Positions 5,226-44,394 of a stretch of DNA of 64,000 nt are shown here, piece by piece. Both the position numbers and the translations under genes were made by a program. The stretch's first letter is position 1; each line of letters begins with the position of its first letter. Source of the stretch: Eledone cirrhosa (Eukaryota); assembly GCA_964016885.1 (NCBI GenBank), contig OZ024742.1, positions 337,404,001 to 337,468,000 of the forward strand, read 5' to 3'. The notes under the pieces were generated by a model, which was given only the letters and a program-made list of their open reading frames with translations, did not search any database and was not told where the DNA came from.

Positions 5226-5269
5226 CTACAGAAAAAGTGAGTGGGATACATACATTATTATATTTGTCT

Positions 5270-5356: not shown

Positions 5357-5448
<92 letters not shown>

Positions 5449-5707: not shown

Positions 5708-5768
<61 letters not shown>

Positions 5769-6033: not shown

Positions 6034-6115
<82 letters not shown>

Positions 6116-6298: not shown

Positions 6299-6649
6299 AT
6301 ATATCATCATGATCGTTTTATCACTACTTTTCTATAAGAGCTTCTGCTATGACTCAGCTATATGCAAATTTAAACACTTCAGTAGTTTAGTCTTATGGAA
6401 AATTACAGAAAGCAACGATAAGTTTGATTGAAATTTTCTCCAAATTGACTCTAAATCGTGAAACTGTTGTGTGTTTTGTACAGTCACTCACTCCAAGTAT
6501 TATGTTGGATATAAAATATTATGATGCAGAAATTAATGTGGTTGTGGTAAATAAATATATATATATTAGGTCTGAACATAAAGGAATCAAATTCCCATTG
6601 TCACTACCTCCATCTCTCTTGCTCTCCCTATCTCTCACTATTATAAACA

Positions 6650-6850
6650 AATGGGTCCCATGTGTTGGCCGCGCTGTGACCCCAGCAGACAGAATAGGAA
6701 GGTGTTTCCCCAGAGGATGGTGAGGGAGACGCGTTGGAAGAGCTATTCCAGCTCACGAGGCTTACACCTGTGGGTAACCAACTCCGTGCCAATAGTGATT
6801 AGGGAGGTGGTCCTAGAGACTAGGACACTAATGGCACAAACCTGTACAAT
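6650..6850 (+). repeat. Old interspersed repeat, possibly a LINE 5' UTR; homologous to 56910-57100 (-)
   Basis: Shared blocks gacagaat..ccagag..gctattcca..ggct(t/c)ac(a/t)cctgt..aactc between the two loci. Confidence 0.45.
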
Positions 6851-7266
6851 GTAGAAAGATTTCTCTAGAACAACAACCTATGTTATATTATACATCATAT
6901 AGAGAGTTGGGAGAAGATTTGGTTTTGGTCAATGTGGGGTTATGGGCGGTGTGGGGGAAATAGCAGGAGTGACATTAGGTGGGCAGAAAGGGAAGTGGAC
7001 TGGCAACTCAGCAACTGGAGTGAGAAAAATCTAGTGAAGATGGTCAAGGTAATATTGTTCAGACTGATCTGTATGGTAGATAAGAACTAAGATGATGTAA
7101 TGACTATGTTGGCAAAGGTCATTTAGAAATGGAGTGAGTAGAAGTTATAGCTGAAAGTAAATCTAAGGAAAGGAATAGTAGTCAGTAATGGCAGCGGAAT
7201 GAGTTGATTAGCTACTACCTTCCACCAGAGAAAAATGTGTAAAAATATGTTAGGGTAAAGTGTAAT

Positions 7267-7595
7267 GACCCTACTTCGGTCATGAATGACCATGGGATAT
7301 ACACCTAGAAAGATCCCCCTCCAAGGCACAGGGGCAAGGTGTGTTTGTGGAAGACCAGCAGTCGCCATAGCATACCAGTATCCTTTCTCCACACCTCAAA
7401 TATTGCCCAAGGGAAAGGCAATGGCCAAAACAGCTTGGCACCAGTGACATTGCAACTCATTTCTATAGCAGAATAAACTGGAGTAATGTGAAATAAAGTG
7501 TCTTGAACACAACACAAAGCCCGGTCCAAGAAACAAACTCATAACCTCACGATTGTAAGCTTGACGCTCTTACCACTAAGCTATGTGCCTTCACA
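7267..7595 (-). mobile_element. tRNA-derived SINE with CORE-like domain and a different 3' tail (resembles cephalopod OK-type SINEs)
   Basis: Reverse complement has an A-box-like tagcttagtgg, a degenerate B box and caagacactttatttcacattactccagt shared with the SINEs at 1-246 and 53839-54178. Confidence 0.75.
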
Positions 7596-7644
7596 TAAAA
7601 ATATGTTTATGTTATAATATAAAAGTCTAAAAATGGAAATAAGT

Positions 7645-10600
7645 TCAGACAAAGGAAACATTGGGCTTTCCATTGCTGATACTATCACCCAGTTGCAAAC
7701 TCAGGCAAAAGATATGATGCAGGACTGTGATCTCTGGTATTATGCAGGAATACAGAAGACTCACCTTCTCATGTGCATGGACTGAGGCATACATTAAGTA
7801 TGTGCCACCTAACCCATCACCCCTCCCATAGACCTCACATGTAACACCCAACACACGTATTACCACCCCCCGCCCTCACCTATGCCCCTATATCTACCTA
7901 CCCAATCCCCTTGCACCTCCCCACATCCAAGTCCCCCAGTCCCTCACTGTAAAGTGGTTGTTTTGGAGCCACAACAATGAGCGTCCAGTCCACAATGTAA
8001 AGTGGTCAACACAAAAGTGGCTAGTGCACACTGTAAAGTGGTTTTGTAGGTGTCACAACAAAAGTGGCTAATGCACATTGGAAAGTGGTTTTGTAGGTGT
8101 CACAACAAGAAGCACCCAGTCGACAATGTAAAGTGGCCATGTAGGTGTCACAACAAAAAGCACCCAGTCCACACTGTAAAGTGGTCATGTAGGTGTCACA
8201 AAAAAAAGCACCCAGTCCACACTGTAAAGTGGTCATGTAGGTGTCACAAAAAAAAGCACCCAGTCGACAATGTAAAGTGGTCATGTAGGTGTCACAACAA
8301 AAAGCATCCAGTCCACACTGTAAAGTGGTCATGTAGGTGTCACAACAAAAAGCACCCAGTCCACACTGTAAAGTGGTTTTGTAGGTGTCACAAAAAAAGT
8401 GGCTAGCGCACACTGTAAAGTGGTTTTGTAGGTGTCACAACAAAAAGCACCCAGTTCACACTGTAAAGTGGTCATGTAGGTGTCACAACAAAAAGCACCC
8501 AGTCCACACTGTAAAGTGGTTTTGTAGGTGTCACAACAAAAAGCATCCAGTCCACACTGTAAAGTGGTCATGTAGGTGTCACAACAAAAAGCACCCAGTC
8601 CACACTGTAAAGTGGTTTTGTAGGTGACACAACAAAAAGCACCCAGTCCACACTGTAAAGTGATCATGCAGGTGTCACAACAAAAAGCACCCAGTCCACA
8701 CTGTAAAGTGGTTTTGTAGGTGTCACAAAAAAAAGCACCCAGTCCACACTGTAAAGTGATCATGCAGGTGTCACAACAAAAAGCACCCAGTCCACACTGT
8801 AAAGTGGTCATGTAGGTGTCACAACAAAAAGCACCCAGTCTACACTGTAAAGTGGTCATGTTGGTGTCACAAAAAAAAGCACCCAGTCCACACAGTAAAG
8901 TAGTAGTGTAGGTGTCACAACAAAAAGCACCCTGTCCACACTGTCAAGTGGTCATGTAGGTGTCACAACAAAAAGCATCCAGTCCACACTGTAAAGTGGT
9001 CATGTAGGTGTCACAACAAAAAGCACCCAGTCCACACTGTAAAGTGGTTTTGTAGGTGACACAACAAAAAGCACCCAGTCCACACTGTAAAGTGATCATG
9101 CAGGTGTCACAACAAAAAGCACCCAGTCCACACTGTAAAGTGGTTTTGTAGGTGTCACAAAAAAAAGCACCCAGTCCACACTGTAAAGTGATCATGCAGG
9201 TGTCACAACAAAAAGCACCCAGTCTACACTGTAAAGGGGTCATGTAGGTGTCACAACAAAAAGCACCCAGTCTACACTGTAAAGTGGTCATGTTGGTGTC
9301 ACAAAAAAAAGCACCCAGTCCACACAGTAAAGTAGTAGTGTATGTGTCACAACAAAAAGCACCCAGACCACACTGTAAAGTGGTCAATGTAGGTGTCACA
9401 ACAAAAAGCACCCTGTCCACACTGTCAAGTGGTCATGTAGGTGTCACAACAAAAAGCATCCAGTCCACACTGTAAAGTGGTCATGTAGGTGTCACACCAA
9501 AAAGCACCCAGTCCACACTGTAAAGTGGTCATGTAGGTGTCACAACAAAAAGCACCCAGTCTACACTGTAAAGTGGTCATGTTGGTGTCACAAAAAAAAG
9601 CACCCAGTTCACACTGTAAAGTGGTCATGTAGGTGCCACAACAAAAGAGGCTAGCGTACACTGTAAAGTGGTCATGTAGGTGTCACAACAAAAAGCACCC
9701 AGTCCACACTGTAAAGAGATCATGTAGGTGTCACAACAAAAAGCACCCAGTCCACACTGTAAAGTAGTAGTGTAGGTGACAAAACAAAAAGCACCCAGTC
9801 CACACTGTAAAGTGGTCATGCAGGTGTCACAACAAAAGAGGCTAGCGTACACTGTAAAGTGGTCATGTAGGTGTCACAACAAAAAGCACCCAGTCCACAC
9901 TGTAAAGTGGTCACGTAGATGTCACAACAAAAAGCACCCTGTCCACACTGTAAAGTGTTCATGTAGGTGTCACAACAAAAAGCACCCAGTCTACACTGTA
10001 AAGGGGTCATGTAGGTGTCACAACAAAAAGCACCCAGTCTACACTGTAAAGTGGTCAATGTAGGTGTCACAACAAAAAGCACCCAGTCCACACTGTAAAG
10101 TAGTAGTGTATGCGTCACAACAAAAAGCACACAGTCCACACTGTAAAGTGGTCAATGTAGGTGTCACAACAAAAAGCACCCAGTCCACACTGTAAAGTAG
10201 TAGTGTATGTGTCACAACAAAAAGCACGCAGTCCACACTGTAAAGTGATCATGCAGGTGTCACAACAAAAAGCACCCAGTCCACACTGTAAAGTGGTCAT
10301 GTAGGTGTCACAAAAAAAAGCACGCAGTCCACACTGTAAAGTAGTATTGTATGTGTCACAACAAAAAGCACCCAGACCACACTGTAAAGTGGTCAATGTA
10401 GGTGTCACAACAAAAAGCACCCTGTCCACACTGTCAAGTGGTCATGTAGGTGTCACAACAAAAAGCATCCAGTCCACACTGTAAAGTGGTCATGTAGGTG
10501 TCACAACAAAAAGCACCCAGTCCACACTGTAAAGTGGTCACGTAGGTGACACAACAAAAAGCACCCAGTCCACACTGTAAAGTGGTCATGTAGGTGTCAC

Positions 10601-13600
10601 AACAAAAAGCATCCAGTCCACACTGTAAAGTGGTCATGTAGGTGTCACAACAAAAAGCACCCAGTCCACACTGTAAAGTGGTCACGTAGGTGACACAACA
10701 AAAAGCACCCAGTCCACACTGTAAAGTGGTCATGTAGGTGTCACAACAAAAAGCACCCAGTCTACACTGTAAAGTGGTCATGTTGGTGTCACAAAAAAAA
10801 GCACCCAGTTCACACTGTAAAGTGGTCATGTAGGGGCCACAACAAGAGGCACCCAGTCCACACTGTAAAGTGGTCATTTAAATGTCACAACGAAGAGCAC
10901 CTAGTCCACACTGTAAAGTGGTCATGTAGATGTCACAACAAAAAGTACCCAGTCCACACTGTAAAGTGGTCATGTAGGTGTCACAAAAAAAAGCACCCAG
11001 TCCACACTGTAAAGTGGTCATGTAGGTGTCACAAAAAAAAGCACCCAGTCCACACTGTAAAGTGGTCAATGTAGGTGTCACAACAAAAAGCACCCTGTCC
11101 ACACTGTCAAGAGGTCATGTAGGTGTCACAACAAAAAGCATCCAGTCCACACTGTAAAGTGGTCATGTAGGTGTCACACCAAAAAGCACCCAGTCCACAC
11201 TGTAAAGTGGTCATGTAGGTGTCACAACAAAAAGCACCCAGTCTACACTGTAAAGTGGTCATGTTGGTGTCACAAAAAAAAGCACCCAGTTCACACTGTA
11301 AAGTGGTCATGTAGGTGCCACAACAAAAGAGGCTAGCGTACACTGTAAAGTGGTCATGTAGGTGTCACAACAAAAAGCACCCAGTCCACACTGTAAAGAG
11401 ATCATGTAGGTGTCACAACAAAAAGCACCCAGTCCACACTGTAAAGTAGTAGTGTAGGTGACAAAACAAAAAAGCACCCAGTCCACACTGTAAAGTGGTC
11501 ATGCAGGTGTCACAACAAAAGAGGCTAGCGTACACTGTAAAGTGGTCATGTAGGTGTCACAACAAAAAGCACCCAGTCCACACTGTAAAGTGGTCACGTA
11601 GATGTCACAACAAAAAGCACCCTGTCCACACTGTAAAGTGTTCATGTAGGTGTCACAACAAAAAGCACCCAGTCTACACTGTAAAGGGGTCATGTAGGTG
11701 TCACAACAAAAAGCACCCAGTCTACACTGTAAAGTGGTCAATGTAGGTGTCACAACAAAAAGCACCCAGTCCACACTGTAAAGTGGTTTTGTAGGTGTCA
11801 CAAAAAAAAGCACCCAGTCCACACTGTAAAGTGATCATGCAGGTGTCACAACAAAAAGCACCCAGTCCACACTGTAAAGTGGTCATGTAGGTGTCACAAC
11901 AAAAAGCACCCAGTCTACACTGTAAAGTGGTCATGTTGGTGTCACAAAAAAAAGCACCCAGTCCACACAGTAAAGTAGTAGTGTATGTGTCACAACAAAA
12001 AGCACCCAGACCACACTGTAAAGTGGTCAATGTAGGTGTCACAACAAAAAGCACCCTGTCCACACTGTCAAGTGGTCATGTAGGTGTCACAACAAAAAGC
12101 ATCCAGTCCACACTGTAAAGTGGTCATGTAGGTGTCACAACAAAAAGCACCCAGTCCACACTGTAAAGTGGTCATGTAGGTGTCACAACAAAAAGCACCC
12201 AGTCTACACTGTAAAGTGGTCATGTAGGTGTCACAACAAAAAGCATCCAGTCCACACTGTAAAGTGGTCATGTAGGTGTCACAACAAAAAGCACCCAGTC
12301 CACACTGTAAAGTGGTTTTGTAGGTGACACAACAAAAAGCACCCAGTCCACACTGAAAAGTGATCATGCAGGTGTCACAACAAAAAGCACCCAGTCCACA
12401 CTGTAAAGTGGTTTTGTAGGTGTCACAAAAAAAAGCACCCAGTCCACACTGTAAAGTGATCATGCAGGTGTCACAACAAAAAGCACCCAGTCCACACTGT
12501 AAAGTGGTCATGTAGGTGTCACAACAAAAGAGGCTAGCGTACATTGTAAAGTGGTCATGTAGGTGTCACAACAAAAAGAACCCAGTCCACACTGTAAAGT
12601 GGTCACGTAGATGTCACAACAAAAAGCACCCTGTCCACACTGTAAAGTGTTCATGTAGGTGTCACAACAAAAAGCACCCAGTCTACACTGTAAAGGGGTC
12701 ATGTAGGTGTCACAACAAAAAGCACCCAGTCTACACTGTAAAGTGGTCATGTTGGTGTCACAAAAAAAAGCACCCAGTCCACACAGTAAAGTAGTAGTGT
12801 ATGTGTCACAACAAAAAGCACCCAGACCACACTGTAAAGTGGTCAATGTAGGTGTCACAACAAAAAGCACCCTGTCCACACTGTCAAGTGGTCATGTAGG
12901 TGTCACAACAAAAAGCATCCAGTCCACACTGTAAAGTGGTCATGTAGGTGTCACACCAAAAAGCACCCAGTCCACACTGTAAAGTGGTCATGTAGGTGTC
13001 ACAACAAAAAGCACCCAGTCTACACTGTAAAGTGGTCATGTTGGTGTCACAAAAAAAAGCACCCAGTTCACACTGTAAAGTGGTCATGTAGGTGCCACAA
13101 CAAAAGAGGCTAGCGTACACTGTAAAGTGGTCATGTAGGTGTCACAACAAAAAGCACCCAGTCCACACTGTAAAGAGATCATGTAGGTGTCACAACAAAA
13201 AGCACCCAGTCCACACTGTAAAGTAGTAGTGTAGGTGACAAAACAAAAAGCACCCAGTCCACACTGTAAAGTGGTCATGCAGGTGTCACAACAAAAGAGG
13301 CTAGCGTACACTGTAAAGTGGTCATGTAGGTGTCACAACAAAAAGCACCCAGTCCACACTGTAAAGTGGTCACGTAGATGTCACAACAAAAAGCACCCTG
13401 TCCACACTGTAAAGTGTTCATGTAGGTGTCACAACAAAAAGCACCCAGTCTACACTGTAAAGGGGTCATGTAGGTGTCACAACAAAAAGCACCCAGTCTA
13501 CACTGTAAAGTGGTCAATGTAGGTGTCACAACAAAAAGCACCCAGTCCACACTGTAAAGTAGTAGTGTATGCGTCACAACAAAAAGCACACAGTCCACAC

Positions 13601-16600
13601 TGTAAAGTGGTCAATGTAGGTGTCACAACAAAAAGCACCCAGTCCACACTGTAAAGTAGTAGTGTATGTGTCACAACAAAAAGCACGCAGTCCACACTGT
13701 AAAGTGATCATGCAGGTGTCACAACAAAAAGCACCCAGTCCACACTGTAAAGTGGTCATGTAGGTGTCACAAAAAAAAGCACGCAGTCCACACTGTAAAG
13801 TAGTATTGTATGTGTCACAACAAAAAGCACCCAGACCACACTGTAAAGTGGTCAATGTAGGTGTCACAACAAAAAGCACCCTGTCCACACTGTCAAGTGG
13901 TCATGTAGGTGTCACAACAAAAAGCATCCAGTCCACACTGTAAAGTGGTCATGTAGGTGTCACAACAAAAAGCACCCAGTCCACACTGTAAAGTGGTCAC
14001 GTAGGTGACACAACAAAAAGCACCCAGTCCACACTGTAAAGTGGTCATGTAGGTGTCACAACAAAAAGCACCCAGTCTACACTGTAAAGTGGTCATGTTG
14101 GTGTCACAAAAAAAAGCACCCAGTTCACACTGTAAAGTGGTCATGTAGGGGCCACAACAAGAGGCACCCATTCCACACTGTAAAGTGGTCATTTAAATGT
14201 CACAACGAAGAGCACCTAGTCCACACTGTAAAGTGGTCATGTAGATGTCACAACAAAAAGTACCCAGTCCACACTGTAAAGTGGTCATGTAGGTGTCACA
14301 AAAAAAGCACCCAGTCCACACTGTAAAGTGGTCATGTAGGTGTCACAAAAAAAAGCACCCAGTCGACCATGTAAAGTGGTCATGTAGGTGTCACAACAAA
14401 AAGCACCCAGTCCACACTGTAAAGTGGTCACGTAGGTGACACAACAAAAAGCACCCAGTCCACACTGTAAAATGGTCATGTAGGTGTCACAACAAAAAGC
14501 ACCCAGTCTACACTGTAAAGTGGTCATGTTGGTGTCACAAAAAAAAGCACCCAGTTCACACTGTAAAGTGGTCATGTAGGTGTCAGAACAAAAAGCACCC
14601 AGTCCACACTGTAAAGTGGTCACGTAGGTGACACAACAAAAAGCACCCAGTCCACACTGTAAAGGGGTCATGTAGGTGTCACAACAAAAAGCACCCAGTC
14701 TACACTGTAAAGTGGTCATGTAGGTGTCACAACAAAAAGCATCCAGTCCACACTGTAAAGTGGTCATGTAGGTGTCACAACAAAAAGCACCCAGTCCACA
14801 CTGTAAAGTGGTTTTGTAGGTGACACAACAAAAAGCACCCAGTCCACACTGTAAAGTGATCATGCAGGTGTCACAACAAAAAGCACCCAGTCCACACTGT
14901 AAAGTGGTCATGTAGGTGTCACAACAAAAAGCACCCAGTCCACACTGTAAAGAGATCATGTAGGTGTCACAACAAAAAGCACCCAGTCCACACTGTAAAG
15001 TAGTAGTGTAGGTGACAAAACAAAAAAGCACCCAGTCCACACTGTAAAGTGGTCATGCAGGTGTCACAACAAAAGAGGCTAGCGTACACTGTAAAGTGGT
15101 CATGTAGGTGTCACAACAAAAAGCACCCAGTCCACACTGTAAAGTGGTCACGTAGATGTCACAACAAAAAGCACCCTGTCCACACTGTAAAGTGTTCATG
15201 TAGGTGTCACAACAAAAAGCACCCAGTCTACACTGTAAAGGGGTCATGTAGGTGTCACAACAAAAAGCACCCAGTCTACACTGTAAAGTGGTCAATGTAG
15301 GTGTCACAACAAAAAGCACCCACTCCACACTGTAAAGTGGTTTTGTAGGTGTCACAAAAAAAAGCACCCAGTCCACACTGTAAAGTGATCATGCAGGTGT
15401 CACAACAAAAAGCACCCAGTCCACACTGTAAAGTGGTCATGTAGGTGTCACAACAAAAAGCACCCAGTCTACACTGTAAAGTGGTCATGTTGGTGTCACA
15501 AAAAAAAGCACCCAGTCCACACAGTAAAGTAGTAGTGTATGTGTCACAACAAAAAGCACCCAGACCACACTGTAAAGTGGTCAATGTAGGTGTCACAACA
15601 AAAAGCACCCTGTCCACACTGTCAAGTGGTCATGTAGGTGTCACAACAAAAAGCATCCAGTCCACACTGTAAAGTAGTCATGTAGGTGTCACAACAAAAA
15701 GCACCCAGTCTACACTGTAAAGTGGTCATGTAGGTGTCACAACAAAAAGCATCCAGTCCACACTGTAAAGTGGTCATGTAGGTGTCACAACAAAAAGCAC
15801 CCAGTCCACACTGTAAAGTGGTTTTGTAGGTGACACAACAAAAAGCACCCAGTCCACACTGTAAAGTGATCATGCAGGTGTCACAACAAAAAGCACCCAG
15901 TCCACACTGTAAAGTGGTTTTGTAGGTGTCACAAAAAAAAGCACCCAGTCCACACTGTAAAGTGATCATGCAGGTGTCACAACAAAAAGCACCCAGTCCA
16001 CACTGTAAAGTGGTCATGTAGGTGTCACAACAAAAGAGGCTAGCGTACATTGTAAAGTGGTCATGTAGGTGTCACAACAAAAAGCACCCAGTCCACACTG
16101 TAAAGTGGTCACGTAGATGTCACAACAAAAAGCACCCTGTCCACACTGTAAAGTGTTCATGTAGGTGTCACAACAAAAAGCACCCAGTCTACACTGTAAA
16201 GGGGTCATGTAGGTGTCACAACAAAAAGCACCCAGTCTACACTGTAAAGTGGTCAATGTAGGTGTCACAACAAAAAGCACCCAGTCCACACTGTAAAGTA
16301 GTAGTGTATGTGTCACAACAAAAAGCACGCAGTCCACACTGTAAAGTGATCATGCAGGTGTCACAACAAAAAGCACCCAGTCCACACTGTAAAGTGGTCA
16401 TGTAGGTGTCACAAAAAAAAGCACGCAGTCCACACTGTAAAGTAGTATTGTATGTGTCACAACAAAAAGCACCCAGACCACACTGTAAAGTGGTCAATGT
16501 AGGTGTCACAACAAAAAGCACCCTGTCCACACTGTCAAGTGGTCATGTAGGTGTCACAACAAAAAGCATCCAGTCCACACTGTAAAGTGGTCATGTAGGT

Positions 16601-19600
16601 GTCACAACAAAAAGCACCCAGTCCACACTGTAAAGTGGTCACGTAGGTGACACAACAAAAAGCACCCAGTCCACACTGTAAAGTGGTCATGTAGGTGTCA
16701 CAACAAAAAGCACCCAGTCTACACTGTAAAGTGGTGATGTTGGTGTCACAAAAAAAAGCACCCAGTTCACACTGTAAAGTGGTCATGTAGGGGCCACAAC
16801 AAGAGGCACCCAGTCCACACTGTAAAGTGGTCATTTAAATGTCACAACGAAGAGCACCTAGTCCACACTGTAAAGTGGTCATGTAGATGTCACAACAAAA
16901 AGTACCCAGTCCACACTGTAAAGTGGTCATGTAGGTGTCACAAAAAAAAGCACCCAGTCCACACTGTAAAGTGCTCATGTAGGTGTCACAAAAAAAAGCA
17001 CCCAGTCCACACTGTAAAGTGGTCAATGTAGGTGTCACAACAAAAAGCACCCTGTCCACACTGTCAAGAGGTCATGTAGGTGTCACAACAAAAAGCATCC
17101 AGTCCACACTGTAAAGTGGTCATGTAGGTGTCACACCAAAAAGCACCCAGTCCACACTGTAAAGTGGTCATGTAGGTGTCACAACAAAAAGCACCCAGTC
17201 TACACTGTAAAGTGGTCATGTTGGTGTCACAAAAAAAAGCACCCAGTTCACACTGTAAAGTGGTCATGTAGGTGCCACAACAAAAGAGGCTAGCGTACAC
17301 TGTAAAGTGGTCATGTAGGTGTCACAACAAAAAGCACCCAGTCCACACTGTAAAGAGATCATGTAGGTGTCACAACAAAAAGCACCCAGTCCACACTGTA
17401 AAGTAGTAGTGTAGGTGACAAAACAAAAAAGCACCCAGTCCACACTGTAAAGTGGTCATGCAGGTGTCACAACAAAAGAGGCTAGCGTACACTGTAAAGT
17501 GGTCATGTAGGTGTCACAACAAAAAGCACCCAGTCCACACTGTAAAGTGGTCACGTAGATGTCACAACAAAAAGCACCCTGTCCACACTGTAAAGTGTTC
17601 ATGTAGGTGTCACAACAAAAAGCACCCAGTCTACACTGTAAAGGGGTCATGTAGGTGTCACAACAAAAAGCACCCAGTCTACACTGTAAAGTGGTCAATG
17701 TAGGTGTCACAACAAAAAGCACCCAGTCCACACTGTAAAGTGGTTTTGTAGGTGTCACAAAAAAAAGCACCCAGTCCACACTGTAAAGTGATCATGCAGG
17801 TGTCACAACAAAAAGCACCCAGTCCACACTGTAAAGTGGTCATGTAGGTGTCACAACAAAAAGCACCCAGTCTACACTGTAGAGTGGTCATGTTGGTGTC
17901 ACAAAAAAAAGCACCCAGTCCACACAGTAAAGTAGTAGTGTATGTGTCACAACAAAAAGCACCCAGACCACACTGTAAAGTGGTCAATGTAGGTGTCACA
18001 ACAAAAAGCACCCTGTCCACACTGTCAAGTGGTCATGTAGGTGTCACAACAAAAAGCATCCAGTCCACACTGTAAAGTGGTCATGTAGGTGTCACAACAA
18101 AAAGCACCCAGTCCACACTGTAAAGTGGTCATGTAGGTGTCACAACAAAAAGCACCCAGTCTACACTGTAAAGTGGTCATGTAGGTGTCACAACAAAAAG
18201 CATCCAGTCCACACTGTAAAGTGGTCATGTAGGTGTCACAACTAAAAGCACCCAGTCCACACTGTAAAGTGGTTTTGTAGGTGACACAACAAAAAGCACC
18301 CAGTCCACACTGTAAAGTGATCATGCAGGTGTCACAACAAAAAGCACCCAGTCCACACTGTAAAGTGGTTTTGTAGGTGTCACAAAAAAAAGCACCCAGT
18401 CCACACTGTAAAGTGATCATGCAGGTGTCAATACAAAAAGCACCCAGTCCACACTGTAAAGTGGTCATGTAGGTGTCACAACAAAAGAGGCTAGCGTACG
18501 TTGTAAAGTGGTCATGTAGGTGTCACAACAAAAAGCACCCAGTCCACACTGAAAAGTGGTCACGTAGATGTCACAACAAAAAGCACCCTGTCCACACTGT
18601 AAAGTGTTCATGTAGGTGTCACAACAAAAAGCACCCAGTCTACACTGTAAAGGGGTCATGTAGGTGTCACAACAAAAAGCACCCAGTCTACACTGTAAAG
18701 TGGTCATGTTGGTGTCACAAAAAAAAGCACCCAGTCCACACAGTAAAGTAGTAGTGTATGTGTCACAACAAAAAGCACCCAGACCACACTGTAAAGTGGT
18801 CAATGTAGGTGTCACAACAAAAAGCACCCTGTCCACACTGTCAAGTGGTCATGTAGGTGTCACAACAAAAAGCATCCAGTCCACACTGTAAAGTGGTCAT
18901 GTAGGTGTCACACCAAAAAGCACCCAGTCCACACTGTAAAGTGGTCATGTAGGTGTCACAACAAAAAGCACCCAGTCTACACTGTAAAGTGGTCATGTTG
19001 GTGTCACAAAAAAAAGCACCCAGTTCACACTGTAAAGTGGTCATGTAGGTGCCACAACAAAAGAGGCTAGCGTACACTGTAAAGTGGTCATGTAGGTGTC
19101 ACAACAAAAAGCACCCAGTCCACACTGTAAAGAGATCATGTAGGTGTCACAACAAAAAGCACCCAGTCCACACTGTAAAGTAGTAGTGTAGGTGACAAAA
19201 CAAAAAGCACCCAGTCCACACTGTAAAGTGGTCATGCAGGTGTCACAACAAAAGAGGCTAGCGTACACTGTAAAGTGGTCATGTAGGTGTCACAACAAAA
19301 AGCACCCAGTCCACACTGTAACGTGGTCACGTAGATGTCACAACAAAAAGCACCCTGTCCACACTGTAAAGTGTTCATGTAGGTGTCACAACAAAAAGCA
19401 CCCAGTCTACACTGTAAAGGGGTCATGTAGGTGTCACAACAAAAAGCACCCAGTCTACACTGTAAAGTGGTCAATGTAGGTGTCACAACAAAAAGCACCC
19501 AGTCCACACTGTAAAGTAGTAGTGTATGCGTCACAACAAAAAGCACACAGTCCACACTGTAAAGTGGTCAATGTAGGTGTCACAACAAAAAGCACCCAGT

Positions 19601-31600: not shown

Positions 31601-34600
31601 AGCACCCAGTCCACACTGTAAAGTAGTAGTGTAGGTGTCAAAACAAAAAGCACCCAGTCCACACTGTAAAGTGGTCATGTAGGTGACACAACAAAAAGCA
31701 CCCAGTTCACACTGTAAAGTGGTCATGTAGGTGTCACAACAAAAAGCACCCAGTCTACACTGTAAAGTGGTCAATGTAGGTGTCACAACAAAAAGCACCC
31801 AGTCCACACTGTAAAGTGGTCATGTAGGTGTCACAACAAAAAGCACCCAGTCTACACTGTAAAGTGGTCAATGTAAGTGTCACAACAAAAAGCACCCAGT
31901 CCACACTGTAAAGTGGTCATGTAGGTGTCACAACAAAAAGCACCCAGTCTACACTGTAAAGTGGTCAATGTAGGTGTCACAACAAAAAGCACCCAGTCCA
32001 CACTGTAAAGTGGTCATGCAGGTGTCACAACAAAAGAGGCTAGCGTACACTGTAAAGTGGTCATGTAGGTGTCACAACAAAAAGCATCCAGTCCACACTG
32101 TAAAGTGGTCATGTATGTGCTACAATAAAATGCACCCAGTCCACACAGTAAAGTGGTCATGTAGGTGTCACAACAAAAAGCAGCCAGTTCACACTGTAAG
32201 GTGGTCATGTAGGTGTCACAACAAAAAGCACCCATTCCACATTGTAAAGAGTTCATTTAATTGTCACAACAAAGAGCACCCAGTCCACACTGTAAAGTGG
32301 TCATCTAGGTGTCACAACAAAAAGCACCCAGTCCAAACTGCAAAGAGGTCATGTAGGTGACACAACAAAAAGCACCCAGTCCACACTGTAAAGTAGTAGT
32401 GTAGGTGTCAAATCAAAAAGCACCCAGTCCATACTGTAAAGTGGTGATGCAGGTGTCACAACAAAAAGCACCCAGTCCACACTGTAAAGTAGTAGTGTAG
32501 GTGTCACAACAAAAAGCAACCAGTCCACACTGTAAAGTGGTCATGTTAGGTGTCATAACAAAAAGCACCCAGTCCACACTGTAAAGTGGTCATGTAGGTG
32601 TCACAACAAAAAGCACCCAGTCCACACTGTAAAGTGGTCATGCAGGTGTCACAACAAAAGAGGCTAGCGTACACTGTAAAGTGATCATGTAGGTGTCACA
32701 ACAAAAAGCACCCAGTCCACACTGTAAAGTGGTCATGTAGGTGTCACAACAAAAAGCATCCAGTCCACACTCTCAAGTGGTCATGTAGGTGTCACAAGAA
32801 AAAGCATCCAGTCCACACTGCAAAGTGGTCATGTTAGGTGTCATAACAAAAAGCACCCAGTCCACACTGTAAAGTGGTCATGTAGGTGTCACAACAAAAA
32901 GCACCCAGTCCACACTGTAAAGTGGTCATGCAGGTGTCACAACAAAAGAGGCTAGCATACACTGTAAAGTGATCATGTAGGTGTCACAACAAAAAGCACC
33001 CAGTCCACACTGTAAAGTGGTCATGTAGGTGTCACAACAAAAAGCACCCAGTCTACACTGTAAAGTGGTCAATGTAGGTATGACAACAAAAAGCAACCAG
33101 TCCACACTGAAAAGTAGTAGTGTATGTGTCACAACAAAAAGCACCCAGTCCACACTGTAAAGTAGTGATATAGGTGTCACAACAAAAAGCACCCAGTCCA
33201 CGCTGTAAAGTAGTAGTGTAGGTGTCAAAACAAAAAGCACCCAGTCCACACTGTAAAGTGGTCATGCAGGTGTCACAACAAAAGAGGCTAGCGTACACTG
33301 TAAAGTGGTCATGTAGGTGTCACAACAAAAAGCACCCAGTCCACACTGTAAAGTGGTCATGTATGTGTCACAACAAAAAGCACCCAGTCCACACTGTAAA
33401 GTAGTCATGTAGGTGTCACAACAAAAAGCACCCAGTCCAACACTGTAAAGTGGTTTTGTAGGTGTCACAACAAAAAGCACCCAGTCCACACTGTAAAGTG
33501 GTCATGTAGGTGTCACAACAAAAAGCACCCAGTCTACACTGTAAAGTGGTCAATGTAGGTGTCACAACAAAAAGCACCCAGTCCACACTGTAAAGTAGTA
33601 GTGTATGTGTCACAACAAAAAACACCCAGTCCACACTGTAAAGTAGTAGTGTAGGTGTCAAAACAAAAAGCACCCAGTGCACACTGTAAAGTGGTGCTGT
33701 AGGTGACACAACAAAAAGCACCCAGTCCACACTGTAAAGTGGTCATGTAGGTGTCACAACAAAAAGCACCCAGTCCACGCTGTAAAGTAGTAGTGTAGGT
33801 GTCAAAACAAAAAGCACCCAGTCCACACTGTAAAGTGGCTTTGTAGGTGTCACAACAAAAAGCACCCAGTCCACACTGTAAAGTAGTAGTGTAGGTGTCA
33901 CAACAAAAAACACCCAGTCCACACTGTAAAGTGGTCATGTAGGTGTCACAACAAAAAGCACCCAGTCTACACTGTAAAGTGGTCAATGTAAGTGTCACAA
34001 CAAAAAGCACCCAGTCCACACTGTAAAGTGGTCATGTAGGTGTCACAACAAAAAGCACCCAGTCTACACTGTAAAGTGGTCAATGTAGGTGTCACAACAA
34101 AAAGCACCCAGTCCACACTGTAAAGTGGTCATGCAGGTGTCACAACAAAAGAGGCTAGCGTACACTGTAAAGTGGTCATGTAGGTGTCACAACAAAAAGC
34201 ATCCAGTCCACACTGTAAAGTGGTCATGTATGTGCTACAATAAAATGCACCCAGTCCACACAGTAAAGTGGTCATGTAGGTGTCACAACAAAAAGCAGCC
34301 AGTTCACACTGTAAAGTGGTCATGTAGGTGTCACAACAAAAAGCACCCATTCCACATTGTAAAGAGTTCATTTAATTGTCACAACAAAGAGCACCCAGTC
34401 CACACTGTAAAGTGGTCATCTAGGTGTCACAACAAAAAGCACCCAGTCCACACTGCAAAGAGGTCATGTAGGTGACACAACAAAAAGCACCCAGTCCACA
34501 CTGTAAAGTAGTAGTGTAGGTGTCAAATCAAAAAGCACCCAGTCCATACTGTAAAGTGGTGATGCAGGTGTCACAACAAAAAGCACCCAGTCCACACTGT

Positions 34601-37600
34601 AAAGTAGTAGTGTAGGTGTCACAACAAAAAGCAACCAGTCCACACTGTAAAGTGGTCATGTTAGGTGTCATAACAAAAAGCACCCAGTCCACACTGTAAA
34701 GTGGTCATGTAGGTGTCACAACAAAAAGCACCCAGTCCACACTGTAAAGTGGTCATGCAGGTGTCACAACAAAAGAGGCTAGCGTACACTGTAAAGTGAT
34801 CATGTAGGTGTCACAACAAAAAGCACCCAGTCCACACTGTAAAGTGGTCATGTAGGTGTCACAACAAAAAGCATCCAGTCCACACTCTCAAGTGGTCATG
34901 TAGGTGTCACAACAAAAAGGACCCAGTCCACACTGTAAAGTGGTCATGTAGGTGTCACAACAAAAAGCACCCAGTCTACACTGTAAAGTGGTCAATGTAG
35001 GTGTCACAACAAAAAGCACCCAGTCCACACTGTAAAGTAGTAGTGTATGTGTCACGATAAAAAGCACCCAGTCCACACTGTAAAGTAGTAGTGTAGGTGT
35101 CAAAACAAAAAGCACCCAGTCCACACTGTAAGGAGGTCATGTAGGTGACACAACAAAAAGCACCCAGTCCACACTGTAAAGTGGTCATGTAGGTGTCACA
35201 ACAAAAACACCCACTCCACGCTGTAAAGTAGTAGTGTAGGTGTCAAAACAAAAAGCACCCAGTCCACACTGTAAAGTGGTCATGCAGGTGTCACAACAAA
35301 AGAGGCTAGCGTACACTGTAAAGTGGTCATGTAGGTGTCACAACAAAAAGCACCCAGTCCTCACTGTAAAGTGGTCATGTAGGTGTCACAACAAAAAGCA
35401 CCCAGTCCACACTGTCAAGTGGTCATGTATGTGTCACAACAAAAAGCATCCAGTCCACACTGTAAAGTGGTCATGTAGGCGTCACAACAAAAAGCATCCA
35501 GTCCACACTGTAAAGTGGTCACGTAGGTGTCACAACAAAAAGCACCCAGTCCACACTGTAAAGTGGTCATGTAGGTGTCACAACAAAAAGCACCCAGTCT
35601 ACACTGTAAAGTGGTCAATGTAGGTGTCACAACAAAAAGCACCCAGTCCACACTGTAAAGTAGTACTGTATGTGTCACAACAAAAAGCACACAGTCCACA
35701 CTGTAAAGTGGTCAATGTAGGTGTCACAACAAAAAGCACCCTGTCCACACTGTAAAGTCGTCATATAGGTGTCACAACAAAATGCACCCAGTTCACACTA
35801 TAAAGTGGTCACGTATGTGCTACAATAAAAAGCACCCAGTCCACACTGTAAAGTGGTCATGTAGGTGTCATAACAAAAAGCACCCAGTTCACACTGTAAA
35901 GTGGTCATGTAGGTGCCACAACAAAAAGCACCCAGTCCACACTGTAAAGAGGTCATTTAATTGTCACAACAAAGAGCACCCAGTCCACACTGTAAAGTGG
36001 TCATCTAGGTGTCACAACAAAAAGCACCCAGTCCACACTGTAAAGAGGTCATGTAGGTGACACAACAAAAAGCACCCAGTCCACACTGTAAAGTGGTTTT
36101 GTAGGTGTCACAACAAAAAGCACCCAGTCCACACTGTAAAGTAGTAGTGTAGGTGTCAAAACAAAAAACACCCAGTCCATACTGTAAAGTGGTCATGCAG
36201 GTGTCACAACAAAAAGCACCCAGTCCACACTGTAAGTTAGTAGTGTAGGTGTCAAAACAAAAAGCACCCAGTCCACACTGTAAAGTGGTCATGTTAGGTG
36301 TCAACAAAAAGCACCCAGTCCACACTGTAAAGTGGTCATGTAGGTGTGGCAACAAAAAGCACCCAGCCCACACTGTAAAGTAGTAGTGTAGGTGTCAAAA
36401 CAAAAAGCACCCAGTCCACACTGTAAAGTGGTCATGCAGGTGTCACAACAAAAGAGGCTAGCATACACTGTAAAGTGGTCATGTAGGTGTCACAACAAAA
36501 AGCACCCAGTCCACACTGTAAAGTGTTCATGTAGGTGTCACAACAAAAAGCACCCAGTCCACACTGTAAAGTGGTCATATAGGTGTCACAACAAAAAGCA
36601 CCCAGTCCACACTGTAAAGTAGTAGTGTACATGTCACAACAAAAAGCACCCAGTCCACACTGTAAAGTAGTCATATAGGTGTCACAACAAAAAGCACCCA
36701 GTCCACACTGTAAAGTAGTAGTGTAGGTGTCACAACAAAAAGCAACCAGTCCACACTGTAAAGTGGTCATGCAAGTGTCACAACAAAAGCACCCAGTCCA
36801 CACTGTAAAGTAGTAGTGTAGGTGTCAAAACAAAAAGCAACCAGTCCACACTGTAAAGTAGTCATGTAGGTGTTACAACAAAAAGCACCCAGTCCAACAC
36901 TGTAAAGTGGTTTTGTAGGTGTCACAACAAAAAGCACCCAGTCCACACTGTAAAGTGGTCATGTAGGTGTCACAACAAAAAGCACCCAGTCTACACTGTA
37001 AAGTGGTCAATGTAGGTGTCACAACAAAAAGCACCCAGTCCACACTGTAAAGTAGTAGTGTATGTGTCACAACAAAAAGCACCCTGTCCACGCTGTAAAG
37101 TGGTCATATAGGTGACACAACAAAAAGCACCCAGTCCACACTGTAAAGTGGTCATGTATGTGCTACAATAAAAAGCACCCAGTCCACACTGTAATGTGGT
37201 CATGTAGGTGTCACAACAAAAAGCACCCAGTTCACACTGTAAAGTGGTCATGTAGGTGCCACAACAAAAAGCACCCAGTCCACACTGTAAAGTAGTAGCG
37301 TAGGTGTCAAAACAAAAAGCACCCAATCCACACTGTAAAGAGGTCATGTAGGTGACACAACAAAAAGCACCCAGTCCACACTGTAAAGTGGTTTTGTAGG
37401 TGTCACAACAAAAAGCACCCAGTCCACACTGTAAAGTAGTAGTGTAGGTGTCAAAACAAAAAGCACCCAGTCCATACTGTAAAATGGTGATGCAGGTGTC
37501 ACAACAAAAAGCACCCAGTCCACACTGTAAAGTAGTAGCGTAGGTGTCAAAACAAAAAGCACCCAGTCCACACTGTAAAGTGGTCAAGTACGTGTCACAA

Positions 37601-40600
37601 CAAAAAGCACCCAGTCCACACTGTAAAGTAGTGGTGTAGGTGTCAAAACAAAAAGCACCCAGTCCACACTGTAAAGTGGTCATGCAGGTGTCACAACAAA
37701 AGAGGCTAGCGTACATTGTAAAGTGGTCATGTAGGTGTCACAACAAAAAGCATCCAGTCCACACTGTCAAGTGGTCATGTAGGTGTCGCAAGAAAAAGCA
37801 TCCAGTCCACACTGTAAAGTGGTCATGTAGGTGTCACAACAAAATGGACCCAGTCCACACTGTAAAGTGGTCATGTAGGTGTCACAACAAAAAGCACCCA
37901 GTCTACACTGTAAAGTGGTCAATGTAGGTGTCACAACAAAAAGCACCCAGTCCACACTGTAAAGTAGTAGTGTATGTGTCACAAGAAAAAGCACCCAATC
38001 CACCCTGTAAAGTAGTAGTGTAGGTGTCAAAACAAGAAGCACCAAGTCCACACTGTAAAGTGGTCATGCAGCTGTCACAACAAAAGAGGCTAGCGTACAC
38101 TGTAAAGTGGTCATGTAGGTGTCACAACAAAAAGCACCCAGTCCACACTGTAAAGTGGTCATGTAGGTGTCACAACAAAAAGCACCCAGTCCACACTGTC
38201 AAGTGGTCATGTATGTGTCACAACAAAAAGCATCCAGTCCACACTGTAAAGTGGTCATGTAGGTGTCACAACAAAAAGCATCCAGTCCACACTGTTAAGT
38301 GGTCACGTAGGTGTCACAACAAAAAGCACCCAGTCCACACTGTAAAGTGGTCATGTAGGTGTCACAACAAAAAGCACCCAGTCTACACTGTAAAGTGGTC
38401 AATGTAGGTGTCACAACAAAAAGCACCCAGTCCACACTGTAAAGTGGTCATGCAGGTGTCACAACAAAAGAGGCTAGCGTACACTGTAAAGTGGTCATGT
38501 AGGTGTCACAACAAAAAGCATCCAGTCCACACTGTAAAGTGGTCATGTATGTGCTACAATAAAATGCACCCAGTCCACACAGTAAAGTGGTCATGTAGGT
38601 GTCACAACAAAAAGCAGCCAGTTCACACTGTAAAGTGGTCATGTAGGTGTCACAACAAAAAGCACCCATTCCACATTGTAAAGAGTTCATTTAATTGTCA
38701 CAACAAAGAGCACCCAGTCCACACTGTAAAGTGGTCATCTAGGTGTCACAACAAAAAGCACCCAGTCCACACTGCAAAGAGGTCATGTAGGTGACACAAC
38801 AAAAAGCACCCAGTCCACACTGTAAAGTAGTAGTGTAGGTGTCAAATCAAAAAGCACCCAGTCCATACTGTAAAGTGGTGATGCAGGTGTCACAACAAAA
38901 AGCACCCAGTCCACACTGTAAAGTAGTAGTGTAGGTGTCACAACAAAAAGCAACCAGTCCACACTGTAAAGTGGTCATGTTAGGTGTCATAACAAAAAGC
39001 ACCCAGTCCACACTGTAAAGTGGTCATGTAGGTGTCACAACAAAAAGCACCCAGTCCACACTGTAAAGTGGTCATGCAGGTGTCACAACAAAAGAGGCTA
39101 GCGTACACTGTAAAGTGATCATGTAGGTGTCACAACAAAAAGCACCCAGTCCACACTGTAAAGTGGTCATGTAGGTGTCACAACAAAAAGCATCCAGTCC
39201 ACACTCTCAAGTGGTCATGTAGGTGTCACAACAAAAAGGACCCAGTCCACACTGTAAAGTGGTCATGTAGGTGTCACAACAAAAAGCACCCAGTCTACAC
39301 TGTAAAGTGGTCAATGTAGGTGTCACAACAAAAAGCACCCAGTCCACACTGTAAAGTAGTAGTGTATGTGTCACGATAAAAAGCACCCAGTCCACACTGT
39401 AAAGTAGTAGTGTAGGTGTCAAAACAAAAAGCACCCAGTCCACACTGTAAGGAGGTCATGTAGGTGACACAACAAAAAGCACCCAGTCCACACTGTAAAG
39501 TGGTCATGTAGGTGTCACAACAAAAACACCCACTCCACGCTGTAAAGTAGTAGTGTAGGTGTCAAAACAAAAAGCACCCAGTCCACACTGTAAAGTGGTC
39601 ATGCAGGTGTCACAACAAAAGAGGCTAGCGTACACTGTAAAGTGGTCATGTAGGTGTCACAACAAAAAGCACCCAGTCCTCACTGTAAAGTGGTCATGTA
39701 GGTGTCACAACAAAAAGCACCCAGTCCACACTGTCAAGTGGTCATGTATGTGTCACAACAAAAAGCATCCAGTCCACACTGTAAAGTGGTCATGTAGGCG
39801 TCACAACAAAAAGCATCCAGTCCACACTGTAAAGTGGTCACGTAGGTGTCACAACAAAAAGCACCCAGTCCACACTGTAAAGTGGTCATGTAGGTGTCAC
39901 AACAAAAAGCACCCAGTCTACACTGTAAAGTGGTCAATGTAGGTGTCACAACAAAAAGCACCCAGTCCACACTGTAAAGTAGTACTGTATGTGTCACAAC
40001 AAAAAGCACACAGTCCACACTGTAAAGTGGTCAATGTAGGTGTCACAACAAAAAGCACCCTGTCCACACTGTAAAGTCGTCATATAGGTGTCACAACAAA
40101 ATGCACCCAGTTCACACTATAAAGTGGTCACGTATGTGCTACAATAAAAAGCACCCAGTCCACACTGTAAAGTGGTCATGTAGGTGTCATAACAAAAAGC
40201 ACCCAGTTCACACTGTAAAGTGGTCATGTAGGTGCCACAACAAAAAGCACCCAGTCCACACTGTAAAGAGGTCATTTAATTGTCACAACAAAGAGCACCC
40301 AGTCCACACTGTAAAGTGGTCATCTAGGTGTCACAACAAAAAGCACCCAGTCCACACTGTAAAGAGGTCATGTAGGTGACACAACAAAAAGCACCCAGTC
40401 CACACTGTAAAGTGGTTTTGTAGGTGTCACAACAAAAAGCACCCAGTCCACACTGTAAAGTAGTAGTGTAGGTGTCAAAACAAAAAACACCCAGTCCATA
40501 CTGTAAAGTGGTCATGCAGGTGTCACAACAAAAAGCACCCAGTCCACACTGTAAGTTAGTAGTGTAGGTGTCAAAACAAAAAGCACCCAGTCCACACTGT

Positions 40601-43600
40601 AAAGTGGTCATGTTAGGTGTCAACAAAAAGCACCCAGTCCACACTGTAAAGTGGTCATGTAGGTGTGGCAACAAAAAGCACCCAGCCCACACTGTAAAGT
40701 AGTAGTGTAGGTGTCAAAACAAAAAGCACCCAGTCCACACTGTAAAGTGGTCATGCAGGTGTCACAACAAAAGAGGCTAGCATACACTGTAAAGTGGTCA
40801 TGTAGGTGTCACAACAAAAAGCACCCAGTCCACACTGTAAAGTGTTCATGTAGGTGTCACAACAAAAAGCACCCAGTCCACACTGTAAAGTGGTCATATA
40901 GGTGTCACAACAAAAAGCACCCAGTCCACACTGTAAAGTAGTAGTGTACATGTCACAACAAAAAGCACCCAGTCCACACTGTAAAGTAGTCATATAGGTG
41001 TCACAACAAAAAGCACCCAGTCCACACTGTAAAGTAGTAGTGTAGGTGTCACAACAAAAAGCAACCAGTCCACACTGTAAAGTGGTCATGCAAGTGTCAC
41101 AACAAAAGCACCCAGTCCACACTGTAAAGTAGTAGTGTAGGTGTCAAAACAAAAAGCAACCAGTCCACACTGTAAAGTAGTCATGTAGGTGTTACAACAA
41201 AAAGCACCCAGTCCAACACTGTAAAGTGGTTTTGTAGGTGTCACAACAAAAAGCACCCAGTCCACACTGTAAAGTGGTCATGTAGGTGTCACAACAAAAA
41301 GCACCCAGTCTACACTGTAAAGTGGTCAATGTAGGTGTCACAACAAAAAGCACCCAGTCCACACTGTAAAGTAGTAGTGTATGTGTCACAACAAAAAGCA
41401 CCCTGTCCACGCTGTAAAGTGGTCATATAGGTGACACAACAAAAAGCACCCAGTCCACACTGTAAAGTGGTCATGTAGGTGTCACAACAAAAAGCACCCA
41501 GTTCACACTGTAAAGTGGTCATGTAGGTGCCACAACAAAAAGCACCCAGTCCACACTGTAAAGAGTTCATTTAAGTGTCACAACAAAGAGCACCCAGTCC
41601 ACACTGTAAAGTGGTCATCTAGGTGTCACAACAAAAAGCACCCAATCCACACTGTAAAGAGGTCATGTAGGTGACACAACAAAAAGCACCCAGTCCACAC
41701 TGTAAAGTGGTTTTGTAGGTGTCACAACAAAAAGCACCCAGTCCACACTGTAAAGTAGTAGTGTAGGTGTCAAAACAAAAAGCACCCAGTCCATACTGTA
41801 AAATGGTGATGCAGGTGTCACAACAAAAAGCACCCAGTCCACACTGTAAAGTAGTAGCGTAGGTGTCAAAACAAAAAGCACCCAGTCCACACTGTAAAGT
41901 GGTCAAGTACGTGTCACAACAAAAAGCACCCAGTCCACACTGTAAAGTAGTGGTGTAGGTGTCAAAACAAAAAGCACCCAGTCCACACTGTAAAGTGGTC
42001 ATGCAGGTGTCACAACAAAAGAGGCTAGCGTACATTGTAAAGTGGTCATGTAGGTGTCACAACAAAAAGCATCCAGTCCACACTGTCAAGTGGTCATGTA
42101 GGTGTCGCAAGAAAAAGCATCCAGTCCACACTGTAAAGTGGTCATGTAGGTGTCACAACAAAATGGACCCAGTCCACACTGTAAAGTGGTCATGTAGGTG
42201 TCACAACAAAAAGCACCCAGTCTACACTGTAAAGTGGTCAATGTAGGTGTCACAACAAAAAGCACCCAGTCCACACTGTAAAGTAGTAGTGTATGTGTCA
42301 CAATAAAAAGCACCCAATCCACCCTGTAAAGTAGTAGTGTAGGTGTCAAAACAAGAAGCACCAAGTCCACACTGTAAAGTGGTCATGCAGCTGTCACAAC
42401 AAAAGAGGCTAGCGTACACTGTAAAGTGGTCATGTAGGTGTCACAACAAAAAGCACCCAGTCCACACTGTAAAGTGGTCATGTAGGTGTCACAACAAAAA
42501 GCACCCAGTCCACACTGTCAAGTGGTCATGTATGTGTCACAACAAAAAGCATCCAGTCCACACTGTAAAGTGGTCATGTAGGTGTCACAACAAAAAGCAT
42601 CCAGTCCACACTGTAAAGTGGTCACGTAGGTGTCACAACAAAAAGCACCCAGTCCACACTGTAAAATGGTCATGTAGGTGTCACAACAAAAAGCACCCAG
42701 TCTACACTGTAAAGTGGTCAATGTAGGTGTCACAACAAAAAGCACCCAGTCCACACTGTAAAGTAGTACTGTATGTGTCACAACAAAAAGCACACAGTCC
42801 ACACTGTAAAGTGGTCAATGTAGGTGTCACAACAAAAAGCACCCTGTCCACACTGTAAAGTCGTCATATAGGTGTCACAACAAAATACACCCAGTTCACA
42901 CTATAAAGTGTTCATGTATGTGCTACAATAAAAAGCACCCAGTCCACACTGTAAAGTGGTCATGTAGGTGTCATAACAAAAAGCACCCAGTTCACACAGT
43001 AAAGTGGTCATGTAGGTGCCACAACAAAAAGCACCCAGTCCACACTGTAAAGAGGTCATTTAATTGTCACAACAAAGAGCACCCAGTCCACACTGTAAAG
43101 TGGTCATCTAGGTGTCACAACAAAAAGCACCCAGTCCACACTGTAAAGAGGTCATGTAGGTGACACAACAAAAAGCACCCAGTCCACACTGTAAAGTGGT
43201 TTTGTAGGTGTCACAACAAAAAGCACCCAGTCCACACTGTAAAGTAGTAGTGTAGGTGTCAAAACAAAAAGCACCCAGTCCATACTGTAAAGTGGTCATG
43301 CAGGTGTCACAACAAAAAGCACCCAGTCCACACTGTAAGTTAGTAGTGTAGGTGTCAAAACAAAAAGCACCCAGTCCACACTGTAAAGTGGTCATGTTAG
43401 GTGTCACAACAAAAAGCACCCAGTCCACACTGTAAAGTGGTCATGTAGGTTTGGCAACAAAAAGCACCCAGTCCACACTGTAAAGTAGTAGTGTAGGTGT
43501 CAAAACAAAAAGCACCCAGTCCACACTGTAAAGTGGTCATGCAGGTGTCACAACAAAAGAGACTAGCATACACTCTAAAGTGGTCATGTAGGTGTCACAA

Positions 43601-44394
43601 CAAAAAGCACCCAGTCCACACTGTAAAGTGTTCATGTAGGTGTCACAACAAAAAGCACCCAGTCCACACTGTAAAGTGGTCATATAGGTGTCACAACAAA
43701 AAGCACCCCTACACACTGTAAAGTAGTAGTGTACATGTCACAACAAAAAGCACCCAGTCCACACTGTAAAGTGGTCATGTAGGTGTCACAACAAAAAGCA
43801 CCCAGTCCACACTGTAAAGTGGTCATATAGGTGTCACAACAAAAAGCACCCAGTCCACACTGTAAAGTAGTAGTGTAGGTGTCACAACAAAAAGCAACCA
43901 GTCCACACTGTAAAGTGGTCATGCAAGTGTCACAACAAAAGCACCCAGTCCACACTGTAAAGTAGTAGTGTAGGTGTCAAAACAAAAAGCACCCAGTCCA
44001 CACTGTAAAGTAGTCATGTAGGTGTCACAACAAAAAGCACCCAGTCCAACACTGTAATGTGGTTTTGTAGGTGTCACAACAAAAAGCACCCAGACCACAC
44101 TGTACAGTAGTAGTGTAGGTATCACAACAAAAAGCACCTGGTCTACACTGTAAAGTGGTCATGTAGGTGTCACAACAAAAAGCACCCAGTCCACACCGTA
44201 AATGTGGTTGGTGTTGGGATGAGCATCCAACTGTAGATACCAAGCCAAAATCAGTTCTGTATTGGCAAGATATTGTCATCTAACCTGGCTTGTCTCACAA
44301 TGGGACAGCTTGTTTAGCCCATGCTAGAGTGGTAAATGGACATTAAATGGTGGTGATGACGACGACAACGAGAACAATGATGAGGATGATGATT
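7645..44394 (+). mobile_element. 5'-truncated, decayed RTE LINE 3' end hosting the 36-kb satellite in its 3' UTR
   Basis: 7645-7770 aligns with the family A ORF end (cagacaaaggaaacattggg vs cagacccagaaaaacctggg; gactgtgatctctggtattatgcaggaatacagaagac vs gaccgagatctttggcgctacacagtaatacagaagac). C-rich spacer 7800-7935. After the array, tgtggttggtgttgggatgagcatccaactgtaga...cccatgctag...tggacattaaat plus a degenerate (GAT)n. Confidence 0.85.
7935..44202 (+). repeat. 48-bp tandem satellite, ~750 monomers; consensus cactgtaaagtggtcatgtaggtgtcacaacaaaaagcacccagtcca
   Basis: Head-to-tail repeat with recurrent 47-49-bp variants and degenerate edge units. No inversion or foreign insertion noticed. 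Confidence 0.99.

Follow-up and report, generated by a model that had tools for sequence, protein, structure and literature searches.

Array architecture and flanking sequences

The window analyzed here, a 64,000-nucleotide stretch of chromosome C3 in an Eledone cirrhosa assembly of 2,995,841,428 bases and 1796 contigs (C1, C2 and C3, 443, 416 and 379 Mb; C24, C25 and C27, 22-31 Mb), contains a head-to-tail satellite array of 36 kb on the forward strand (7939-44213), where a core scan found 755 unit matches, corresponding to about 755 copies of a 48-bp unit. TRF called the array at 8023-44208 with a period of 48, 753.4 copies and 88% matches. The 751 tiled units were mostly 48 bp long (624 units, with 74 of 49 bp and 52 of 47 bp) and comprised 233 distinct monomers with a mean identity of 94.2% to the majority unit. 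An identical twin elsewhere in the array was found for 641 of 752 units, and the first five units were the most diverged (16.7%). Nested block duplications were identified at offsets of 4319 (21 mismatches in 4304 bases), 5957 (9 in 3289) and 3459 (0 in 1414). Both the length of tens of kilobases and the local homogenization with array-specific variants that mark satellite DNA are therefore present at this locus. No fixed single higher-order period was detected in the array (best lags, 90 and 124), and a period derived from these lags was rejected as each reflects a single block duplication. A special DNA hairpin driving array growth was also rejected, as DNA folding did not exceed that of shuffled sequence (z between -0.86 and -1.80). 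RNA folding, to which we attach no weight, produced z-scores of -2.60 for one A-rich dimer and -0.50 and -0.41 for LINE stretches.

The array is enclosed by the two parts of one LINE 3' end, all on the forward strand. To its left, the 3' remnant of an RTE-type ORF (7706-7773), the translation of which resembles the final residues of the intact ORF, is followed by a C-rich 3' UTR spacer of subfamily B (7774-7938). To its right, the last unit leads into a motif (44203-44243), a linker with the true RTE 3' end (44244-44346) and a decayed (GAT)n terminus (44347-44394). A genome search with the left flank retrieved 598 candidates, 40 of which were scored; the 39 non-self matches were 70-80% identical to the flank and all began at or after query position 62 (window position 7706). 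The original prediction had started the element at 7645, which has to be moved to about 7706, the 5' truncation point of the array-bearing LINE. The LINE ORF match continued into the left-flank stretch in 26 of 29 fetched relatives, and the spacer reached a profile score of 192.8 bits, the 23 relatives behind the profile having themselves been selected with this flank. The intact LINE of the window aligned to the left flank over only 46 bp (76%), and its connection to the LINE is made through an older sister subfamily with copies across the genome. The same tail directly followed the units in 24 of the 29 relatives retrieved by the left flank alone, and a tail profile made from these relatives scored 165.1 bits on the right flank of the array, indicating that both flanks belong to one subfamily in one orientation, as had been claimed. 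The placement of the satellite within the 3' UTR of one RTE-type LINE copy was likewise largely upheld, and the passage of the last unit into the tail can be seen in the sequence as described. A search for target-site duplications around the array-bearing copy, the flanks of which are 11-14% decayed, gave none of at least 7 bp; the best candidates were 6 bp and GAT-like.

Continuity of the locus was assessed using public contigs. The left junction was bridged by a 498-nt contig of set X1 without differences (7477-7974) and in set X2 with two differences (7749-7974), while set X3 ended at 7758; these contigs have a depth of 3-4 and probably derive from the same sample as the assembly, and RAD-seq set X4 did not cover the junction. 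Summed contig depth was ~250,000 over the unit and 3-4 on the unique flank, a ratio that does not represent a copy number. Contig linkage covers the left junction (two of three contig sets), with the right junction known from the assembly, and array length depends on the assembly, where near-identical blocks of 1.4-4.3 kb could be erroneous duplicates. An assembly artefact, in which unrelated pieces were joined through a collapsed or inflated repeat, would account for the 1414-base block repeated without mismatch. We give this explanation a slim chance, as the array is free of N bases, holds its many distinct monomers and private variants from edge to edge, and separates flanks of one subfamily that remain in register, with the left junction bridged as above. 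The only gap in the window is a 200-N scaffold gap at 4920-5119, 2.6 kb upstream of the array-bearing LINE copy.

The carrier LINE family and its composite 3' end

A young copy of sister subfamily A lies at 241-3639 (+) and, despite loss of its 5' end, retains an open single ORF, about three units, the tail and (GAT)11. Its frame (223-3255, stop to stop) spans 1010 aa with Pfam matches to Exo_endo_phos (endonuclease), RVT_1 (reverse transcriptase, RT) and a PHD finger. A single ORF with an endonuclease followed by an RT is the layout of RTE-type LINEs. One ORF with an apurinic-type endonuclease before the RT was observed here (downstream of the ~520-base 5' region of full copies) and in relatives of 1040-1100 aa, together with (GAT)n ends and ragged 5' ends, i.e., the short tandem-repeat 3' terminus and 5'-truncated copies of the RTE clade. 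Based on this architecture, the family is assigned as putatively RTE-type. The young copy shares 95-98% identity with 39 genomic copies, and the family was probably active recently. A shared short block of units preceded the tail in all 29 fetched non-self young copies, in agreement with the proposal that the 3' module spreads seed repeats.

The predicted order of ORF end, C-rich spacer, units, tail and (GAT)n was recovered at 3130-3639 (+) and in a 5'-truncated subfamily A copy at 62663-63270 (-; 87.9% identity to 3130-3639 over 618 columns), each with about three diverged units. Related short ends were retained at 53839-54015 (-), at 56244-56520 (-; a short 3' module with two units) and at 63789-64000 (-; a module running off the window end). 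The end listed at 165-246 was reassigned, as it is the left half of a SINE split by a LINE: positions 1-243 and 3637-3724 form one SINE interrupted by the young LINE at 241-3639, and the second half picks up in the intact SINE-like element at 53839 to about 54170 (-) where the first leaves off. Two more distant RTE-type LINE copies (48330-50960, -; 45900-46830, +) are 66-71% identical to the young copy, with no unit block seen. The window also contains 3' fragments of another LINE family, which we take to be CR1/L2-like, at 51122-51890 and 59250-60380, the second ending in a 131-bp duplication.

The "conserved tail" of the original prediction does follow the units in relatives; however, it is a composite of an RTE 5'-UTR-type motif and the true RTE 3' end. 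A profile of the post-unit motif matched 200-330 bases upstream of the ORF in eight distant RTE-type elements, and gave no matches on reversed sequences. The distant relatives (79 metagenome loci) have, where examined, short 3' UTRs without the unit, which points to acquisition of the unit block, and have the final 60 bases and a (GAT)n-type end in common with the array family. Neither unit nor motif was found in the ~520-base 5' region shared by the LINE family (24 copies); four upstream unit or motif matches lie beyond this region. As the motif sits upstream of the ORF in distant elements and is absent from the family's own 5' region, the LINE 3' UTR resembles a bipartite body captured from an RTE element or a SINE, and given the composite tail the seed repeat may have come to the LINE from a SINE-like partner. 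The SINE-like element (53839-54165, -) shares units, motif and 3' end with the LINE and is a candidate Ceph/CORE-type SINE, a type made up of a tRNA head, a CORE-like domain, an RTE 5'-UTR piece and an RTE 3' end, of which the two RTE pieces were demonstrated. Its head is presumably of tRNA origin, with a CORE-like domain; ARAGORN returned no tRNA matches, and an Rfam search of window positions 1-9000 returned none. The 48-bp unit itself may have arisen by duplication of the adjoining motif: the last unit passes into the motif without interruption, and the likeness between them is weak, with 30 and 95 of 2000 shuffles scoring equally high.

Growth of the array at this locus

Private sequence variants were used to trace the source of the array. 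A variant 30-mer had 31 matches in the 3.0-Gb assembly, all within window positions 9638-42425 and none on the other strand, which argues that most growth was local, and a related private variant is spread from 8019 to 42407. Among 752 monomers, 369 carry at least three changes from the majority; 290 of these recur in the array and none was present among 2432 monomers of other arrays. None of 513 variant monomers was common to another locus, and the longest exact match between different loci was 321 bases vs 3167 bases inside the array. The claim of amplification in situ thus holds for the bulk of the array, which, with private variants and nested block duplications throughout, was copied from itself. 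Overall, a single RTE-type LINE copy, truncated at its 5' end, has the array in its 3' UTR, and the most probable origin of the array is growth at this site from the small number of units carried by the LINE family.

A long array could also have been retrotransposed whole, as the cDNA of a satellite-bearing master copy. Many arrays of 1-4 kb do show a tail and an abrupt 5' end, like 5'-truncated insertions. As the private variants recur inside the array and at no second locus, however, this route is very unlikely for the 36-kb array, to the point of being barely credible; the short exact matches between loci and the presence of long-array tails in both main tail clades also speak against it.

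Divergence from the family majority was 13.6% for the left flank (221 columns) and 10.7% for the tail (150 columns) vs 5.7% for the monomers, consistent with the predicted contrast between decayed flanks and a homogenized array. The monomers carry no fixed change, and under a neutral in-place model divergence at half that of the flanks has P 0.02-0.09, so that an early import or conversion may have accompanied local growth.

Taken together, growth in place would begin with LINE and SINE 3' modules, which deposit 0-7 units at thousands of sites; core matches in the 29 left-flank relatives numbered 0-7 in 28 and at least 30 in one. Self-copying of the array bulk, seen at this locus, would then proceed by unequal exchange between sister chromatids or homologues or by repair-associated tract duplication, a process that would also trim or delete the flanks of other arrays. 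Host function would not be required.

Long arrays elsewhere in the genome

Exact matches to the first 43 bases of the unit numbered 9009 genome-wide, and contrary to the notion that one seed had amplified, dozens did, in several subfamilies. Intermediates were observed: copies of subfamily A' each amplified different units of their own, to 8, 8, 17, 19 and 19 core matches, and the 65 units of an array at C3:93.2 Mb, which retains both flanks, are marked by two fixed private changes. A single insertion was copied by segmental duplication to C25:19.14, 19.30 and 19.60 Mb, and these paralogues, with 5' flanks that are 96-97% identical, contain 21, 8 and 8 units, respectively. Among sampled arrays that keep both flanks, none is longer than the 36-kb array. 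Three sampled arrays are longer, namely C1:432.65 Mb (1410 units, 69 kb, with a remnant of the tail), C1:2.3 Mb (926 or more units, at least 45 kb) and C25:18,426,744-19,124,300 (~697 kb, ~14,500 units), in the last of which all 24 sampled stretches (172 kb, partly overlapping) were array. This C25 array is a candidate centromeric or large heterochromatic block. Its 5' end adjoins a Helitron fragment (Pfam Helitron_like_N, E 1.7e-15) and on the 3' side it terminates in a short fold-back formed by the unit, on a chromosome of 29 Mb.

A LINE tail terminated 17 of 28 arrays with at least 25 units, vs 9 of 400 in the random background and none in any row of the wrong-end control; C27:19.38 Mb, which has a tail with a short flank, is left out of the tail count, and C24:10.87 Mb, found by its tail, is left out of the pooled counts. 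Six further long arrays had the tail in four cases. The 5' flank was kept in 5 of the 28 arrays and both flanks in 5 of 26. Short arrays in dispersed elements are thus accompanied by long arrays that keep the element's flanks, as expected for a satellite derived from a repeat internal to a transposable element. The original prediction had named long arrays that lack LINE flanks and are basal in a monomer tree as evidence against it, and the first part of this is seen: the tail was absent from 11 of 28, the 5' flank from 23 of 28, and both from the 697-kb array. As most long arrays were retrieved through their similarity to the 36-kb array, the sample is biased towards the majority unit.

The flankless C25 array, together with the unit-free 3' UTRs of distant relatives, could be read as a satellite that predates the seeds and was captured by the LINE or its SINE partner. 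We consider such capture unlikely, as the unit (weakly) resembles the motif that follows it with no break between them, the giant array carries a variant that is rare in seeds, and loss of flanks occurs in short arrays as well. Even if capture took place, the 36-kb locus would still have grown where it lies.

In these similarity-chosen samples, long arrays are found preferentially towards the ends of chromosomes and on the small chromosomes. On C1, the terminal 20 Mb at either end contain 8 of 10 arrays vs none of the 32 short copies (Fisher p 4e-7; the short copies were found by likeness to elements of the window, a possible positional bias), and array matches crowd on C24-C28 whereas flank matches crowd on C1-C5 (both samples chosen by similarity). 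This bias may be linked to recombination rate. Both settings, chromosome ends and small chromosomes, would favor growth, and arrays there would exchange sequence; the interior 36-kb array would be older and mostly isolated from such exchange.

Exchange between loci

At unit position 44, one variant predominates in 20 of 38 long arrays vs 3 of 41 generic short-copy units, and reaches 1% in the 36-kb array. The seven variant-dominated arrays with a usable tail sit in both tail clades, and their grouping in one clade was rejected (p-AU 1.7e-5) in a tree of 41 rows and 154 columns with rough supports, for which 20 of the 38 long arrays gave no usable tail. Dominance of the variant in arrays whose tails do not form one clade implies that pure growth in place is not the full explanation. 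The pattern hints at exchange between loci; alternatives are recurrent mutation and preferential expansion of the variant.

Following this reasoning, LINE seeds could serve as homology for ectopic conversion, with a first tract imported into a seed and local growth thereafter. The distribution of the position-44 variant fits such import, as does a paralogue 19 kb from the giant C25 array that changes to the unit type of the giant after unit 6. The best case is C27:16.86 Mb, where young flanks 90-98% identical to A' siblings enclose 91 generic units, the majority of which differs from 82 sibling units at a median of 8 of 48 sites. One sibling unit is, however, just 3 sites from that majority, the position-44 variant could arise repeatedly or be favored in expansion, and the 36-kb array has little of this variant and shares no variant monomer with another locus. 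Import of the first tract is therefore a genuine but minority possibility, and growth from the LINE's own seed units remains our preferred reading for the 36-kb array. A broader and rather speculative picture is that a duplicated regulatory motif of the LINE became a genome-wide satellite network, in which retrotransposed copies act as landing pads that ectopic conversion overwrites with the dominant variant where they lie at a chromosome end or on a small chromosome, one array of ~700 kb forms a candidate centromere, and interior arrays drift in isolation.

Relation to known systems

Satellites born from internal repeats of mobile elements are known mainly for LTR and DNA elements. In B1-derived VNTRs, a tandem repeat was likewise seeded by a non-LTR retroposon and then expanded, but its unit is 6 bp and formed from a dimer within the SINE; these arrays are far smaller than the 36-kb array. 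The origin of satellites from repeats internal to transposable elements is thus a known kind, of which an RTE LINE as carrier is a variant without a description that we could find: no published account of the 48-bp repeat or of an RTE LINE-derived case was found (Repbase or Dfam may contain the unit), and the term RTE does not occur in the accessible text of a satellite review (PMC9659126). That text lists the cetacean L1 3' satellite, chicken CR1 HinfI and Drosophila HeT-A 18HT as LINE-related satellites. These are alike in their kinship to a LINE 3' part, but the monomers listed there are fragments of the element itself, whereas here a tandem seed is already part of the LINE and the 36-kb array is still framed by both flanks. 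In the accessible part of a paper on Octopus vulgaris repeats, 80 satellite and 176 RTE families are described without being linked, and the Zenodo library of that study may contain the unit (PMC13282606).

Tandem repeats in the 3' UTR of Ogre LTR retrotransposons expand to satellites in Lathyrus sativus (PMC7004042). Short 3'-UTR arrays, dispersal by the element, expansion of some arrays in place and a bias in chromosome position are common to both systems; Ogre, in contrast, is a plant LTR element that expanded mainly at primary constrictions, whereas here an animal non-LTR element expanded at chromosome ends and on small chromosomes. Internal repeats also gave rise to kilobase-size animal satellites in Tetris TIR-220 of Drosophila virilis (PMC4079207) and from the central repeats of DINE/Helitron elements (PMC9659126), although, as described there, these are DNA transposons with other monomer sizes and links to heterochromatin. 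As for the composite tail, bipartite RTE-derived SINE bodies, including cephalopod ones, and the Ceph-domain have been described (PMC5786205). As in the array-bearing family, an RTE 5'-UTR motif is joined to an RTE 3' end, with a CORE-like body ahead in the SINEs; here, motif and 3' end together make up the 3' UTR of a LINE that is autonomous, with tandem units ahead, and the motif may correspond to the published domain.

The 36-kb array clearly illustrates, in an animal, a known route by which satellites are likely to arise, and with dozens of such arrays genome-wide, of up to ~700 kb, it is not unique. Satellite and LINE annotations overlap in this genome, which calls for caution. A single assembly presents the full LINE series, from about three units in young copies through 755 with both flanks to ~14,500 without. 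As the flanks supply the ancestry and a clock for each array, rates of expansion, effects of position and exchange between loci become directly measurable.
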